Sequence record: OR844650
Length of the DNA stretch: 64,000 nt
Source: Escherichia phage ECO103 4-12-1
Direction: 5' to 3' (one strand)
Shown one piece after another: positions 1 through 64,000 of this stretch. Position 1 is the first letter of the stretch. Each line of letters opens with the position of its first letter. The notes under the pieces are model-generated. The model was not told the DNA's origin. It searched no databases and saw nothing but the letters and a program-made list of their open reading frames with translations. The position numbers and the translations under genes were made by a program.

Positions 1-163
1 ATACAATTAGTACGTTTTTTCCTGGTCCCACATCCGTTATAGTGAAATTAATATTATTAATATTCAGTGATTTACCAATATAATGCTCTTTCAATAATTC
101 AACAAAATAATCCAGTACTGGATTATCTGCACTATATGATAACTCAGTACTTGATATCATTTT
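1..163 (-). CDS. hypothetical protein, partial (N-terminal part; 3' end beyond window start)
   Basis: ATG at 163 reading leftwards off the window (MISSTELSYSADNPVLDYF...); same strand and spacing as neighbours. Confidence 0.3.
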
Positions 164-188
164 ATATGTATGAACTATTAGTTCAGCT

Positions 189-389
189 TTAGTCATGAAC
201 ACGCTCACAATTAAGGCAATAAATGCACTCAATGTCAGGTCGCCATGATTTATCAAAATCTTTGTGTTGTTCTTCGGTGTATTCCGCATCATCATTAATA
301 GGGAAGAAATCACCAGCACCAGTCGCCCAGTCTGAATCTAAACGGAAACGAGCTAATTGAGTACTGTTACAATATGGACATTTATTCAA
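189..389 (-). CDS. small zinc-ribbon protein
   Basis: ORF 66 aa; CPYC near N-terminus and CIYCLNC near C-terminus. Confidence 0.55.
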   Translation of the reverse strand: MNKCPYCNSTQLARFRLDSDWATGAGDFFPINDDAEYTEEQHKDFDKSWRPDIECIYCLNCERVHD

Positions 390-666
390 AATTTATTCCT
401 TCTAACTGATATACGTTTAATGAAAATGACCCACTATTATTATCGCATCTGAAACACAGTGTTAAAGAACCATTAAAACTAACTACATCCGTACAGATAC
501 ATTTTTCACCATTGGATATGATAGATTTTCCTATATATAAATCTCTTACTATAGTACGGTAATGTTGCCATAAAAAATAATACACACTTTCATAGTACTC
601 ATCTTTTACATATGATAAGTATAAGAATTTATAAAATACTTGTATTTCCTTTAAGTTGTTTTTCAT
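382..666 (-). CDS. hypothetical protein, family C paralog
   Basis: ORF 94 aa; N-terminal motif EIQVFYKFLYLSY shared with next four genes. Confidence 0.6.
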   Translation of the reverse strand: MKNNLKEIQVFYKFLYLSYVKDEYYESVYYFLWQHYRTIVRDLYIGKSIISNGEKCICTDVVSFNGSLTLCFRCDNNSGSFSLNVYQLEGINFE

Positions 667-940
667 TCTCCAACTCCAGTAAATTTACACCAATCCAATC
701 AACATCACTATCAGTACTTAATTCCAATCGTAGCTTACCGCTATGACTAACAATATCGCGGAATTTGTATATTTTATTATCACGAACTATACACAAATCA
801 TGGTAATATTCATGTAATTCATCCAAAAACTTTATCCATACCGAACGATAGATTTCACTGTAGAGATATTCTCCAGCATCAACCGTAGCGTATTGGATAT
901 ACAAAAATTTGTATGTGAATTGTATATCATTTAATAACAT
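629..940 (-). CDS. hypothetical protein, family C paralog
   Basis: ORF 103 aa; N-terminal MLLNDIQFTYKFLYIQY. Confidence 0.6.
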   Translation of the reverse strand: MLLNDIQFTYKFLYIQYATVDAGEYLYSEIYRSVWIKFLDELHEYYHDLCIVRDNKIYKFRDIVSHSGKLRLELSTDSDVDWIGVNLLELENEKQLKGNTSIL

Positions 941-950
941 ATGTAACCTC

Positions 951-1262
951 TTATAAATTCACCAACTTCACAACTTTAATCTCGATAAATCCCCTATCGG
1001 TTATTTCCTGAAATTGAACATGGATTATACCATTATATGATTGCACACCATAGAAATCGAATTTATCATTTCCATCGATAAAAGTACTGTAATTCTTTTT
1101 TATATATTCACCTACTGAATCTAAGTACTCAATATATAAATCAATAAATGGTTGTTCTTTGGATCGGTTATGTGAACCTATGTTGTTACTAACAAGGTAT
1201 ACATCATACAAATCATATAGTATCTTATAAGTGAATTGTATATCATTTAAATTTAATCCCAA
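951..1262 (-). CDS. hypothetical protein, family C paralog
   Basis: ORF 103 aa; N-terminal MGLNLNDIQFTYKILYDLY. Confidence 0.6.
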   Translation of the reverse strand: MGLNLNDIQFTYKILYDLYDVYLVSNNIGSHNRSKEQPFIDLYIEYLDSVGEYIKKNYSTFIDGNDKFDFYGVQSYNGIIHVQFQEITDRGFIEIKVVKLVNL

Positions 1263-1519
1263 GGGAATATCTCCAACGGAATACTGGTAAATCCAAAATC
1301 AGTGTAGTACTGAACCTCAACTTTACCATCACGTCTAATGATTATATCAGAAAATTCTGCATGGTCATCACCAATAATAACAGTACTGAATTTTTTTTTA
1401 ATCTTACCACGAATCGTATGAATCATTTCAGTGCATGTGTCTTCTAGACTAGGGCTATCATTGTCGTGTGCTAAATCTTGAATAATCTTGTATGTTAGTA
1501 GGAAATCTTTATAATTCAT
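1253..1519 (-). CDS. hypothetical protein, family C paralog
   Basis: ORF 88 aa; N-terminal MNYKDFLLTYKIIQDL. Confidence 0.55.
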   Translation of the reverse strand: MNYKDFLLTYKIIQDLAHDNDSPSLEDTCTEMIHTIRGKIKKKFSTVIIGDDHAEFSDIIIRRDGKVEVQYYTDFGFTSIPLEIFPWD

Positions 1520-1791
1520 ATGTCCACCAAATCTATACTATATCTTTCATTAGTATTACTATCTATAAATGATAGTACTAATTTACCACCAAAACTATTA
1601 ACTTGTTCTATCTTCTGTTTTTTACCACGAATGATTATCTCACTATTAACAAAATATTCACGTATCATTATTAAGTGATTAATCCAGATAGTATGAGTGA
1701 ATGTGTTTTCTCGTATTGTATTGAGATATCTTCCATTGTGATGTAAATCAAACAAAACACTGTATGTATATTGTAGAACTTTATAATTCAT
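1516..1791 (-). CDS. hypothetical protein, family C paralog
   Basis: ORF 91 aa; N-terminal MNYKVLQYTYSVLFDL; 4-nt overlap with downstream gene. Confidence 0.55.
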   Translation of the reverse strand: MNYKVLQYTYSVLFDLHHNGRYLNTIRENTFTHTIWINHLIMIREYFVNSEIIIRGKKQKIEQVNSFGGKLVLSFIDSNTNERYSIDLVDI

Positions 1792-1837
1792 ATATCCCCT
1801 TACAAAAATAGCCCGAACTTATGTCGGGCTATGTACA

Positions 1838-2452
1838 TTATTCATCGTCGTCATCGTCATCTAGATCGATATAGATACTATCATCACCATCATCAAAGTA
1901 CTCCACAATAACTCCTGGAATATTAAGAGCAGTAAACATTGCATCATATTTCTCATCAGATGGAATCAAAACAAATTCATCAATGTTTTGAACTTCTGGC
2001 ATTTTATCTTCGGGGATACCCATATCAACAAGTGACTGAATAATCTTTTCTTTGAATTCTAAAAACTTCTCTTCAGATTCAAAATCCATAATAAGCTGTG
2101 CAACATATCCTTCATCGTTACCGAATGAAATTGACATTTGTGCATCCGTACCGACATAGCACCAAACACGTTTACCTGTGTGCTGCTCAATAAAGTTTTG
2201 AATCTGTAACACAATGTCATGGCGAGAACTGTTAGCAATGTTGTTAAGATTTTCTACACCAGCATTAATTCCAGTACTGTCATTTGTTTCTTCAAATTCA
2301 CCATAATCACCCAATACATACTGTACACCTTCATGATGTAATGCATATGCATAGTCAAGGTCAGCGAGTGAATCGCACTTTCCACGGATCGGACGTAGGG
2401 AAAGACCTAAGCGAAGATAACGGAAATATGTATTAGTATTTGTATTTGTCAA
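1838..2452 (-). CDS. hypothetical acidic protein (poly-Asp C-terminal tail)
   Basis: Long ORF to 2524; probable TTG start at 2452 preceded by AAGGAG; C-terminus ...IDLDDDDDDE. Confidence 0.5.
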   Translation of the reverse strand: MTNTNTNTYFRYLRLGLSLRPIRGKCDSLADLDYAYALHHEGVQYVLGDYGEFEETNDSTGINAGVENLNNIANSSRHDIVLQIQNFIEQHTGKRVWCYVGTDAQMSISFGNDEGYVAQLIMDFESEEKFLEFKEKIIQSLVDMGIPEDKMPEVQNIDEFVLIPSDEKYDAMFTALNIPGVIVEYFDDGDDSIYIDLDDDDDDE

Positions 2453-2732
2453 CGTAATGCTCCTTAACAATATAAAAGTAGTTGCTGTTATTGTCAAAAA
2501 AGATAACCATCCCTTTATAGACATTTACACCAATTTTGATTTCACATATGTTATTTGATTTACTGGCTTCAGTCAATAACATTTTGTGCTCTTTACTGAA
2601 AGTGTGGAACAGTGGTTTGACATGCCACATTTCGATACCATCCAGTACTGAAAATTTATCACTAAATTTAATCATTGATTCTTGTAAAAAATATCCTGTA
2701 AGATTTATTTCATCACACATGCAAGTTTCCAA
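2433..2732 (-). CDS. hypothetical protein
   Basis: ORF 99 aa in same-strand compact operon. Confidence 0.5.
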   Translation of the reverse strand: METCMCDEINLTGYFLQESMIKFSDKFSVLDGIEMWHVKPLFHTFSKEHKMLLTEASKSNNICEIKIGVNVYKGMVIFFDNNSNYFYIVKEHYVDKYKY

Positions 2733-63055: not shown

Positions 63056-63076
63056 TTTTATTACTCCAGGTTATAG

Positions 63077-63135
63077 GCGGGATGTGTTCCCGCTCTAGAT
63101 GTAAAACATTATACGCCATTAAACATAGTTTGCAA
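63077..63135 (-). promoter_or_regulatory. PeSL-like cassette
   Basis: TTGCAA-N16-TATAAT then GGCGGGA..TCCCGC hairpin. Confidence 0.5.
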
Positions 63136-63142
63136 GTACTTT

Positions 63143-63409
63143 TTATTCAAGTACTGCAATCTTTTTAGTACGGTACACGGTCACGCGGTTGCCCTTTCGG
63201 TCGAGCTTTATTTCTACCACTCGACGCGATACACTATCGGGACTTTTTAAGGCCGCTAACCAGTACTGTAATGATCTGGCTGTACTACGCTTTACAATGG
63301 CCCAACGTTCACCACTTGCCGATCCCGCACCCATATCTTTAAACGTTGCCCCGTCCTGGCGAGCGGCGATCCGAGCTTGTTCACGCGTCGCAAAATACTT
63401 AATATTCAT
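63143..63409 (-). CDS. hypothetical protein; paralog of 50718..51113
   Basis: ORF to 63445; likely start MNIKYFATREQ; shared DRKGNRVTVY. Confidence 0.55.
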   Translation of the reverse strand: MNIKYFATREQARIAARQDGATFKDMGAGSASGERWAIVKRSTARSLQYWLAALKSPDSVSRRVVEIKLDRKGNRVTVYRTKKIAVLE

Positions 63410-63446
63410 GCTGTTGCCCTTATCGTTGGTGTATGAATAAAACACT

Positions 63447-63481
63447 ATTATAAAGTACTATCACCGTGCAATAGTACTTTA
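63447..63481 (-). promoter_or_regulatory. sigma70-like promoter
   Basis: ATTGCA-N17-TATAAT on minus strand. Confidence 0.4.
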
Positions 63482-63492
63482 AATAAATTCTA

Positions 63493-63732
63493 TTACATTC
63501 CAACCATCGCCGCACGGATCGCAGTAGTGCTATATTTGAATCCGTCCGGTGTTTTATCTTGTCCAGTCTGTTCTAAAAATAGCATCATATGACGGGCCGC
63601 ATCATTGCGATTAGTGCTATCGTTAATAAAGTCCTGGGCCAACCGGTACAATGATTCATCGTTATTAATCCAAAGGCTTACATTCCAATGAGTTTTGTTT
63701 TTGTGACCTAAGAACATTTTTGATTTTGCCAT
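63493..63732 (-). CDS. hypothetical protein; paralog of 61454..61693
   Basis: ORF to 63786 runs through cassette; likely start MAKSKMF at 63732. Confidence 0.55.
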   Translation of the reverse strand: MAKSKMFLGHKNKTHWNVSLWINNDESLYRLAQDFINDSTNRNDAARHMMLFLEQTGQDKTPDGFKYSTTAIRAAMVGM

Positions 63733-63753
63733 TTTTTTTAATCCTCTTATATA

Positions 63754-63812
63754 GTGGGGAACTATTCCCCACCTGATGTAAAACATTATACGCTTTTAAA
63801 CTTAGTTTGCAA
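63754..63812 (-). promoter_or_regulatory. PeSL-like cassette
   Basis: TTGCAA-N16-TATAAT then GTGGGGAA..TTCCCCAC hairpin. Confidence 0.55.
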
Positions 63813-63823
63813 GTACTATTTTT

Positions 63824-64000
63824 TCAGTACTGGTAAACCTTTGATCTCACCTGGCTGTACTTCCTCAAAGGCGACCGCCATCATACGGCTATCATCTTCC
63901 TTACATTCTTCCATCGCATCACAAAAATGATTAATAACGTCCGGTGCAACGTCAACCACATCAAACAAGCCAACCTCAGTGCAACGGCTTAAAGCGTTTA
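63824..64000 (-). CDS. hypothetical protein, partial (C-terminal part; start beyond window end)
   Basis: Open frame from window end to TAG at 63824-63826 (...FEEVQPGEIKGLPVLKK). Confidence 0.35.

Follow-up and report, generated by a model that had tools for sequence, protein, structure and literature searches.

A highly iterated AGTACT palindrome in Escherichia phage ECO103 4-12-1 and related jumbo phages

The stretch of Escherichia phage ECO103 4-12-1 analyzed here (record OR844650; 64,000 bp, hereafter the window) comes from an Asteriusvirus jumbo coliphage, and its most conspicuous feature is a 6-bp palindrome, AGTACT, that recurs through genes and promoters alike. A 7-kb piece of the window is 98.3% identical over its full length to Escherichia phage vB_EcoM_G17 (G17), and the other Asteriusvirus matches to this piece (Sharanji, PBECO4, 121Q, and slurp01) lie at 92 to 98%; matches of the window to Campylobacter phages trace to a small gene shared among rV5-like records and have no bearing on the motif. 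The window is 87% coding, with 157 of its 164 putative genes on the minus strand. In the G17 record, the same genes appear twice, at 153 to 362 and at 350302 to 350511 (an offset of 350,149), as does one terminator, at 20064 and 370213, so that G17 carries a direct terminal repeat of ~20.7 kb, part of which maps to the window. Direct terminal repeats of 20,993 bp in fEgEco12, determined by PhageTerm and restriction mapping, and of 22,456 bp in CBB have been reported. In the window, the repeat holds small early genes, each behind a strong sigma-70-type promoter, and its G+C content is raised (0.38 to 0.39). It is also where the density of AGTACT peaks, at 123 sites, or 6.4 per kb. Coordinates of these and other features are collected in Table 1.

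AGTACT is present in 245 exact copies, or 3.8 per kb. Base composition predicts 21.4 copies, and 100 shuffles that preserved dinucleotides gave 16.9 +/- 4.0 with a maximum of 31, which places the enrichment at ~11- to 14-fold. The original prediction, made by eye, had claimed a strong over-representation; the claim was borne out and even understated the effect, and its estimate of about 12 sites between 45 and 47 kb agrees with the exact count of 12. The three most over-represented hexamers of the window are AGTACT, GTACTG (155 copies), and CAGTAC (135 copies), and its most frequent 8-mer is CAGTACTG, found 56 times against ~0.6 expected. Under a maximal-order Markov model AGTACT is enriched just 1.2-fold because the 5-mers AGTAC and GTACT are themselves enriched, meaning that the signal is hierarchical, not absent.

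The signal acts at the level of DNA and not through codons. The 164 putative genes contain 187 copies, compared with 57.2 +/- 6.4 (maximum, 74) after shuffling of synonymous codons inside each gene and 22.5 +/- 4.7 (maximum, 35) after permutation of codons. The resulting ratios of 3.3 and 8.3 are not near 1, the value that the original prediction had named as refuting it under a codon-preserving null. For CAGTACTG the coding count is 44, against 7.4 and 1.1 under the same two models. Because the expectation from synonymous shuffling (57) exceeds that from codon permutation (22), the pressure must have shaped protein sequences as well. Coding copies fall in all three frames (69, 50, and 67 in frames 0, 1, and 2) and are spread evenly along genes, and sites are denser between genes than within them (7.2 versus 3.3 per kb). 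Together with the symmetry of the flanks described below, these properties place the signal in the DNA itself.

The base before the palindrome is C at 119 sites, A at 64, T at 49, and G at only 13, and the base after it mirrors this preference (G109, T63, A52, and C21), a symmetry that persists despite the strong compositional skew between strands. The two flanks are chosen independently, both preferred bases being present at 56 sites against 53 expected, and coding sites carry no information past +/-1. The word can therefore be written C/A/T-[A>T]GTAC[T>A]-G/T/A, with GTAC nested within AGTACT and AGTACT within CAGTACTG. Among one-mismatch neighbors, solely TGTACT/AGTACA is clearly enriched (3.2-fold); the rest, transition neighbors included, lie at 0.7- to 1.4-fold, and AGTATT/AATACT, the products of C-to-T decay, are at 1.36-fold, similar to other neighbors. 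When the word was compared with polar words such as Chi, KOPS, and DUS, it proved palindromic with mirror-image flanks, and a bias in orientation appeared only in a block of DNA that lacks ACT, where it follows from that ban.

Most of the intergenic sites in the terminal repeat occupy two fixed positions of sigma-70 promoters. At the first, the palindrome abuts the -35 hexamer, as in AAAAAGTAC-TTGCA, and AGTACTTGCA is found 17 times in the window; at the second, it abuts the -10 hexamer, as in AGTACTG-TATAAT, and AGTACTGTATAAT is found 13 times. The promoter contexts first quoted for the palindrome were likewise located, TTGACAaagtatatcAGTACTGTATAAT at two positions (48252 and 48746) and AAAAAGTACTTGCA at many. 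Some promoters carry both palindromes, 20 to 24 bp apart, and 17 pair spacings in the window fall in that range. The -35 arrangement (type A in Table 1) recurs in CBB and GAP32, which belong to another genus, and there AGTAC-TTGCA-N12-13-AGTACT-N-TATAAT is found 11 and 10 times, respectively, against 0.02 to 0.05 expected. When tested as an operator, then, AGTACT overlaps or flanks the -35 and -10 elements of the early promoters in the terminal repeat, and paired palindromes about two helical turns apart that bracket a core promoter are an operator layout. This arrangement is the main reason for favoring a DNA-binding regulator among the possible readers of the word.

Two further features of the terminal repeat were observed alongside the palindrome. 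Repeated cassettes run through 45 to 64 kb, each preceding a small gene and beginning right after the preceding stop codon; they consist of a near-consensus sigma-70 promoter and then, starting ~12 nucleotides after the -10 hexamer, a GC-rich hairpin (GGGGAGAAnnGTTCTCCCC) that lacks a T-tract. T4-type phages have cassettes of similar build, known as promoter-early stem-loop (PeSL) cassettes, and an Rfam search of the window, cassette hairpin included, returned no match. The E. coli Chi sequence (GCTGGTGG) is also clustered here, with eight minus-strand copies against 0.2 expected; the G17 repeat has nine, and ~600 bp from the right end of G17 a Chi pairs with its complement in a hairpin. Given the known polarity of Chi, its orientation in the repeat fits reading by RecBCD entering at the left end of the repeat.

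To place the window in its family, AGTACT was counted in 221 kb of G17, 100 kb of the Klebsiella phage RaK2, 50 kb each of the Pectobacterium phage CBB, Serratia phage BF (structural genes), and E. coli K-12, and the first 50 kb of GAP32. G17 has 652 copies where 74.5 are expected (8.8-fold), RaK2 has 238 (7.0-fold), CBB has 207 (12.4-fold), BF has 120 (7.1-fold), and GAP32 has 253, and the sampled family genomes carry one site per 260 to 420 bp over all gene classes. E. coli has 3, compared with 11.6 expected (0.3-fold). The enrichment is thus a property of the phage lineage and not of the host, and it is conserved in at least four genera.

Phage genomes are a textbook case of palindrome avoidance. 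Tested as a restriction site, AGTACT is enriched 7- to 12-fold rather than avoided, and in each phage sample tested for palindromes it is the sole strongly enriched 6-bp palindrome. Between 15 and 22 others are fully absent per 50 kb despite expectations of 4 to 17, among them CTTAAG and GATATC (17 expected each), and GGTACC and CGTACG are avoided in most of the phage genomes sampled. The tetranucleotide GCGC is missing altogether, both from the window (0 versus 42.6 +/- 7.2 in shuffles) and from the G17, RaK2, CBB, and BF samples (0 versus 180, 66, 49, and 49 expected). E. coli, by contrast, contains it 342 times per 50 kb. The tetranucleotide could be missing because a nuclease that cuts GCGC thereby leaves the phage intact. 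The family therefore combines extreme palindrome avoidance with one amplified exception. As a separate observation, GATC stands at about half of expectation in Asteriusvirus samples (359 versus 686 in 221 kb) and nearer to it in RaK2 (231 of 296) and CBB (128 of 162), and despite the Asteriusvirus shortage the annotations of G17, GAP32, and CBB each include a Dam-family methyltransferase.

Individual sites are kept. Relative to WPEC3, which is ~83% identical in the unique region, AGTACT is retained at 148 of 168 alignable sites, compared with 64.6% for composition-matched hexamers (P = 4e-12). Retention relative to 121Q is 72 of 80 (matched hexamers, 73.5%), and two comparisons with G17 gave 119 of 122 and 102 of 108 (matched hexamers, 88.9% and 86.7%). 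Gains are about as frequent as losses between the compared genomes, and these alignments indicate purifying selection on individual AGTACT sites. DNA that was likely acquired recently lacks the word. In G17 the Dam methyltransferase and cytidylyltransferase genes are neighbors, but in the window an endonuclease-like open reading frame separates them; this frame, missing from G17, has no AGTACT and is probably a free-standing homing endonuclease insertion. Likewise, the first three tail-spike genes of RaK2 have two copies over 5.6 kb, against 9.3-fold enrichment in the remainder of the stretch. A third likely example is a 5-kb array of paralogous genes described below. The word thus builds up the longer a piece of DNA has been resident, and it is thereafter retained. 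In RaK2, the region at L015, 26955 to 32547 (322.8 to 328.4 kb of the record), holds tail-fiber and depolymerase genes like those of unrelated phages; AGTACT stands there at about chance level, against a 9-fold enrichment in neighboring genes, as would be expected if transferred genes gain the word slowly.

The enrichment is uneven, with no sites in 29379 to 37663 or in 40103 to 45095, and these two gaps differ in kind. Most of the first is a block in which the sense strand has no ACT in any frame, compared with 124 expected from the composition of the block or ~154 from the window-wide rate, and AGTACT is absent for this reason. The ban extends to every NACT, not to UACU alone, and a strong promoter (38190 to 38162) lies just upstream. 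A zero-ACT gap of 7.5 to 8.3 kb is common to four genomes (the window, G17, 121Q, and WPEC3), down to ~83% identity; scanning of another 63% of G17 and of the RaK2, CBB, and BF samples revealed no comparable gap. In place of AGTACT, the sense strand of the block carries AGTACA 45 times (read as TGTACT on the plus strand), 15 times the expectation and distributed 16/15/11 among frames. These copies keep the preferred flanks, with C at -1 in 19 of 45 and G at +1 in 20 of 45 (background frequencies, 0.19 and 0.13). At the replaced position, A or T stands in 45 cases and each of the alternatives in 1, which indicates that the outer position tolerates A or T and not G or C. Flank retention where the copy on one strand is forbidden implies that pressure for the duplex word persists, and the replacement and retention together favor recognition of double-stranded DNA over reading of a single strand or of RNA. 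Outside the palindrome, total ACT is not enriched, at 18.9 per kb versus ~16 per kb estimated from composition. The block itself suggests immunity to an agent specific for a trinucleotide on one strand, such as an ACU-cutting endoribonuclease, a single-stranded DNA nuclease, or a primase.

The second gap shows no ban on any k-mer and is a plain region without enrichment. It is occupied by an array of paralogous genes of 70 to 90 amino acids, and its nine sense-strand TGTACT are homologous Ala-Val-Leu codons in these paralogues. The inner boundary of the terminal repeat (~44965) falls ~130 bp from the first AGTACT after this stretch; no AGTACT-free island was found at the terminal-repeat boundary of CBB or after the left repeat of G17. 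Three other causes of the gaps were rejected. A sequencing or basecalling artifact is inconsistent with the same pattern in 121Q, G17, and WPEC3, the last ~83% identical there. Gene duplication fails because most genes in the first block are unique and the family of small genes extends across the boundary of the second stretch. A polarity switch between the stretches, as at an origin or terminus, fails because the first is a ban on ACT itself and the second has no k-mer ban. Separately, G17 has 3.3 kb without plus-strand ACCA, where ~20 are expected (L010, 477 to 3821; 20.5 to 23.8 kb of the record), just inside its left terminal repeat in an array of genes of ~60 amino acids; this gap may merely reflect biased composition.

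Table 1. Positions of the features discussed, in the window unless another genome is named
Feature	Position	Strand	Remarks
Field of 245 AGTACT palindromes	1..64000	.	Consensus (C>A>T, rarely G)AGTACT(G>T>A, rarely C)
Endonuclease-like open reading frame, 261 amino acids	3539-4324	-	phrog_681; CapR/DUF723 domains
Dam-family DNA N6-adenine methyltransferase	4321..4842	-	Pfam PF05869, E = 6e-32; phrog_111
Paralogous family, 8 members	18.6-27.9 kb region
Paralogous family, 4 members	27.9-29.6 kb region
ACT-free block	29452..37663	-	0 ACT on sense (minus) strand; 8.2 kb, ~20 genes
Zero-ACT gap, G17	L007, 34816-42463
Zero-ACT gap, 121Q	L005, 10053-17562
Zero-ACT gap, WPEC3	L011, 11061-19380
Family of 20 paralogous tandem genes, 65-105 amino acids	39140-44897 and 23583-23774		Median 34% identity
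5-kb nonenriched stretch	40103..45095	-	0 AGTACT, ~1.7 by chance; abuts inner boundary of terminal repeat
Part of ~20.7-kb direct terminal repeat	44965..64000	-	Window-to-G17 mapping; right third of window
Early promoter, type A, AAAAAGTAC-TTGCA-N17-TATAAT	47696..47728	-	Palindrome 47723-47728 abuts/overlaps -35
Early promoter, type B, TTGACA-N9-AGTACT-G-TATAAT	48245..48272	-	Palindrome 48252-48257 abuts -10
Early promoter, type C	47040..47076	-	Palindromes 47071-47076 and 47049-47054, 22 bp apart, flank -35 element and -10 region
Example promoter-hairpin cassette	48214-48272	-	Sequence
Chi, GCTGGTGG	46327, 46550, 48127, 50026, 52373, 53274, 53987, 58615	-	Sequence match
Chi, GCTGGTGG	58677 and 5579	+	Sequence match

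We consider it probable, at roughly 0.8, that AGTACT is a lineage-specific word that is maintained by selection and read on duplex DNA. As to the reader, we tentatively propose an abundant, symmetric phage DNA-binding protein that controls early promoters and decorates the chromosome, an account we regard as possible but short of even odds. According to this model, a symmetric, probably homodimeric protein of the RaK2/121Q/GAP32-type jumbo phages would recognize AGTACT on double-stranded DNA. Its binding at the two palindromes that flank the -35 and -10 elements would control, and most likely shut off, early transcription by the host RNA polymerase, and binding at ~1,000 further sites per genome would coat the phage chromosome, organize it, or label it as self. 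The original prediction had offered a recognition site for a phage protein or a DNA-modification or packaging signal. The first is the class of explanation best supported by a DNA-level, lineage-specific signal with conserved sites, although neither a cognate protein nor a modification was identified. A role in packaging is unlikely, since the word is present ~1,000 times per genome and these phages have fixed ends with ~21-kb terminal repeats.

Several observations weigh against the proposed protein. No cognate was found in the part of the window proteome that was scanned: ten proteins of the ACT-free block had no match in Pfam, proteins of the AGTACT-free islands and their neighbors had none in Pfam or the PDB, and PDB sequence searches with three window proteins were likewise negative. 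The stereotypy of the promoters may in part reflect common descent of repeated cassettes or a contact made by RNA polymerase itself. Outside promoters, the sites show no helical phasing. Conservation of sites and their slow accumulation are equally expected under biased gene conversion. In addition, a word of 6 to 8 bp without information past +/-1 resembles the specificity of a restriction-modification system more than that of a typical operator, which favors a methyltransferase as the reader.

One alternative, which we regard as doubtful but deserving of attention, is that the whole sequence grammar of these phages serves self-identity, combining the purge of palindromes, a reader of AGTACT, and an ACU-free operon that escapes a trinucleotide-specific nuclease. 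Under this scheme, DNA without GCGC and with almost no other palindromes would be spared by the nucleases of the phage or its host, and a dedicated protein or epigenetic system would read AGTACT, switch off the early promoters of the terminal repeat, and organize or mark ~1,000 sites on the chromosome.

Somewhat less likely is an epigenetic mark, in which AGTACT/WGTACW would be the target of an orphan phage DNA methyltransferase and would serve, for example, to distinguish parental from new DNA, time early promoters, or direct repair. Such a mark would parallel directly the cyanobacterial palindrome HIP1 with its cognate methyltransferases. Beyond the size and exactness of the word, its tolerance at the outer position matches type II specificities (TatI, W^GTACW; ScaI, AGT^ACT), and where ~20 other 6-bp palindromes and all GCGC have been purged, ~1,000 exposed copies of AGTACT would be most easily tolerated if protected. 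The conserved Dam-family methyltransferase in Table 1 (orthologues G17_00508, GAP32_068, and CBB_72), the sole DNA-modifying enzyme found in the part of the window proteome scanned, is a candidate reader or writer. More adenine and cytosine methyltransferases have been reported for Sharanji, CBB, and RaK2, and RaK2 DNA has been reported to resist many enzymes. However, protection would account for tolerance, not for a 10-fold enrichment. The continued avoidance of GGTACC and CGTACG in most genomes implies that the GTAC core is not generally protected, 5-methylcytosine should have left the excess of C-to-T decay products that is not seen, and the normal cutting of fEgEco12 DNA by ten enzymes shows that it is not globally modified.

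A nonadaptive drive, in which a mismatch-specific or site-specific nuclease would bias heteroduplex repair or gene conversion toward AGTACT during the intense recombination of T4-like replication, so that the word would build up with no benefit to the phage, appears improbable. It would explain why accumulation follows residence time in DNA that likely arrived without sites, why sites are retained above background, as biased conversion predicts, and why the pressure overrides protein sequence. Yet the neighbors that conversion-type repair should consume are not depleted (1.1- to 1.4-fold, with TGTACT at 3.2-fold), unlike the CTAG/CCWGG pattern of very-short-patch repair, and conversion of that type was rejected for this reason. 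Placement in early promoters is fixed and conserved between genera, and no candidate nuclease was identified.

More improbable again is a site for an enzyme of DNA transactions, a phage type II topoisomerase or a T4-type primase, that would serve the 350-kb genome every few hundred bp. The regular supply of sites in all gene classes would suit either enzyme, a palindrome serves both strands at once, and the phage encodes a gp39/52-type topoisomerase and a gp61-type primase. For the topoisomerase, a dyad cut with a 4-bp stagger would match W^GTAC^W. The primers made by T4 primase are pentamers, and the enzyme also relies on a cryptic 3' nucleotide. By analogy, 5'-AGTACT-3' could template the pentamer pppGUACU plus a cryptic 3' base; to our knowledge, however, known primases need only trinucleotides. 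Retention of both duplex flanks in the ACT-free block, where the copy on one strand is broken, disfavors reading of a single strand, and placement in promoters is left unexplained.

We give little credence to a site for a host protein of the Enterobacterales, such as SlmA, that phage DNA would titrate or activate; we know of no other host factor with an AGTACT site, and resemblances to LexA and TrpR half-sites fail because the spacing does not fit. All hosts of the family are Enterobacterales, and the SlmA consensus GTGAGTACTCAC has the same AGTACT core (PMC3020112). SlmA, however, requires G1, T2, and a purine at position 3, with the half-site G-T-R-A-G-Y on both sides (PMC3020112), and the window has no match to GTRAGYRCTYAC, even at one mismatch; G at -1 is the most avoided flank (13 of 245), and GAGTACTC is absent from the window, so SlmA in its known form was rejected. 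Least credible of all is an RNA-level signal in which AGUACU would be cleaved or processed by a MazF/Kid-type endoribonuclease, because even though Salmonella arizonae MazF cuts U^ACU (PMC10864209) and the ACU-free block implies that an agent specific to a trinucleotide on one strand probably exists, the flanks are mirror symmetric and independent rather than strand specific, many sites lie in promoter spacers, ACT is not enriched outside the palindrome, and the block bans every NACT rather than UACU alone.

The AGTACT enrichment is real, strong, family-wide, and apparently undescribed: no report of it, or of enrichment of CAGTACTG, was found in the papers on Sharanji, CBB, RaK2, and fEgEco12 or in full-text searches, a scope that did not include the GAP32 paper. 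One palindrome raised 10-fold in at least four genera and built into early promoters implies a specific reader that has yet to be described, and the ACT-free block and total absence of GCGC point to undescribed nucleases. If true, the self-identity scheme would amount to a previously undescribed layer of genome-wide phage regulation. The combination of ~1,000 ScaI sites with no HhaI sites also offers a simple diagnostic or typing handle for phages under development for therapy.

Among known systems, AGTACT most invites comparison with HIP1 (GCGATCGC) of cyanobacteria. Both are short exact palindromes found every few hundred bp, at many times expectation (tens of times for HIP1), in all reading frames and between genes, with sites conserved beyond background and shorter palindromes nested within, and every testable behavior that defines HIP1 is shared by AGTACT. 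In contrast, the phage word is AT-rich and is carried by a virus lineage whose host genome is depleted in it. HIP1 has cognate methyltransferases, whereas for AGTACT such a link would be putative, and AGTACT has fixed positions in early promoters. We therefore describe the AGTACT field as an analogue of HIP1 and not a member, as word and carrier differ, and the function of AGTACT may bear on the long-standing question of the role of HIP1 and other highly iterated palindromes. The promoter arrangement recalls TF1 of Bacillus phage SPO1, another large virulent phage, whose long direct terminal repeat is crowded with strong early promoters for the host RNA polymerase; there an abundant phage protein binds elements that overlap those promoters and shuts off early transcription. 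TF1, however, belongs to the HU type, depends on hydroxymethyluracil DNA, and has a loose sequence preference, whereas AGTACT is an exact hexamer on apparently ordinary DNA. Chi, KOPS, and DUS/USS are likewise short words kept dense by selection and read by a protein machine, but they are asymmetric and strand oriented, and AGTACT is palindromic, with no orientation. ScaI (AGT^ACT) and TatI (W^GTACW) recognize the identical word with the same tolerance of W; such sites are as a rule avoided by phages, and neither a nuclease nor a methylase cognate to AGTACT was identified. Finally, the SlmA site GTGAGTACTCAC shares the central AGTACT, but its required flanks are absent from, and even avoided by, the word that these phages have amplified.

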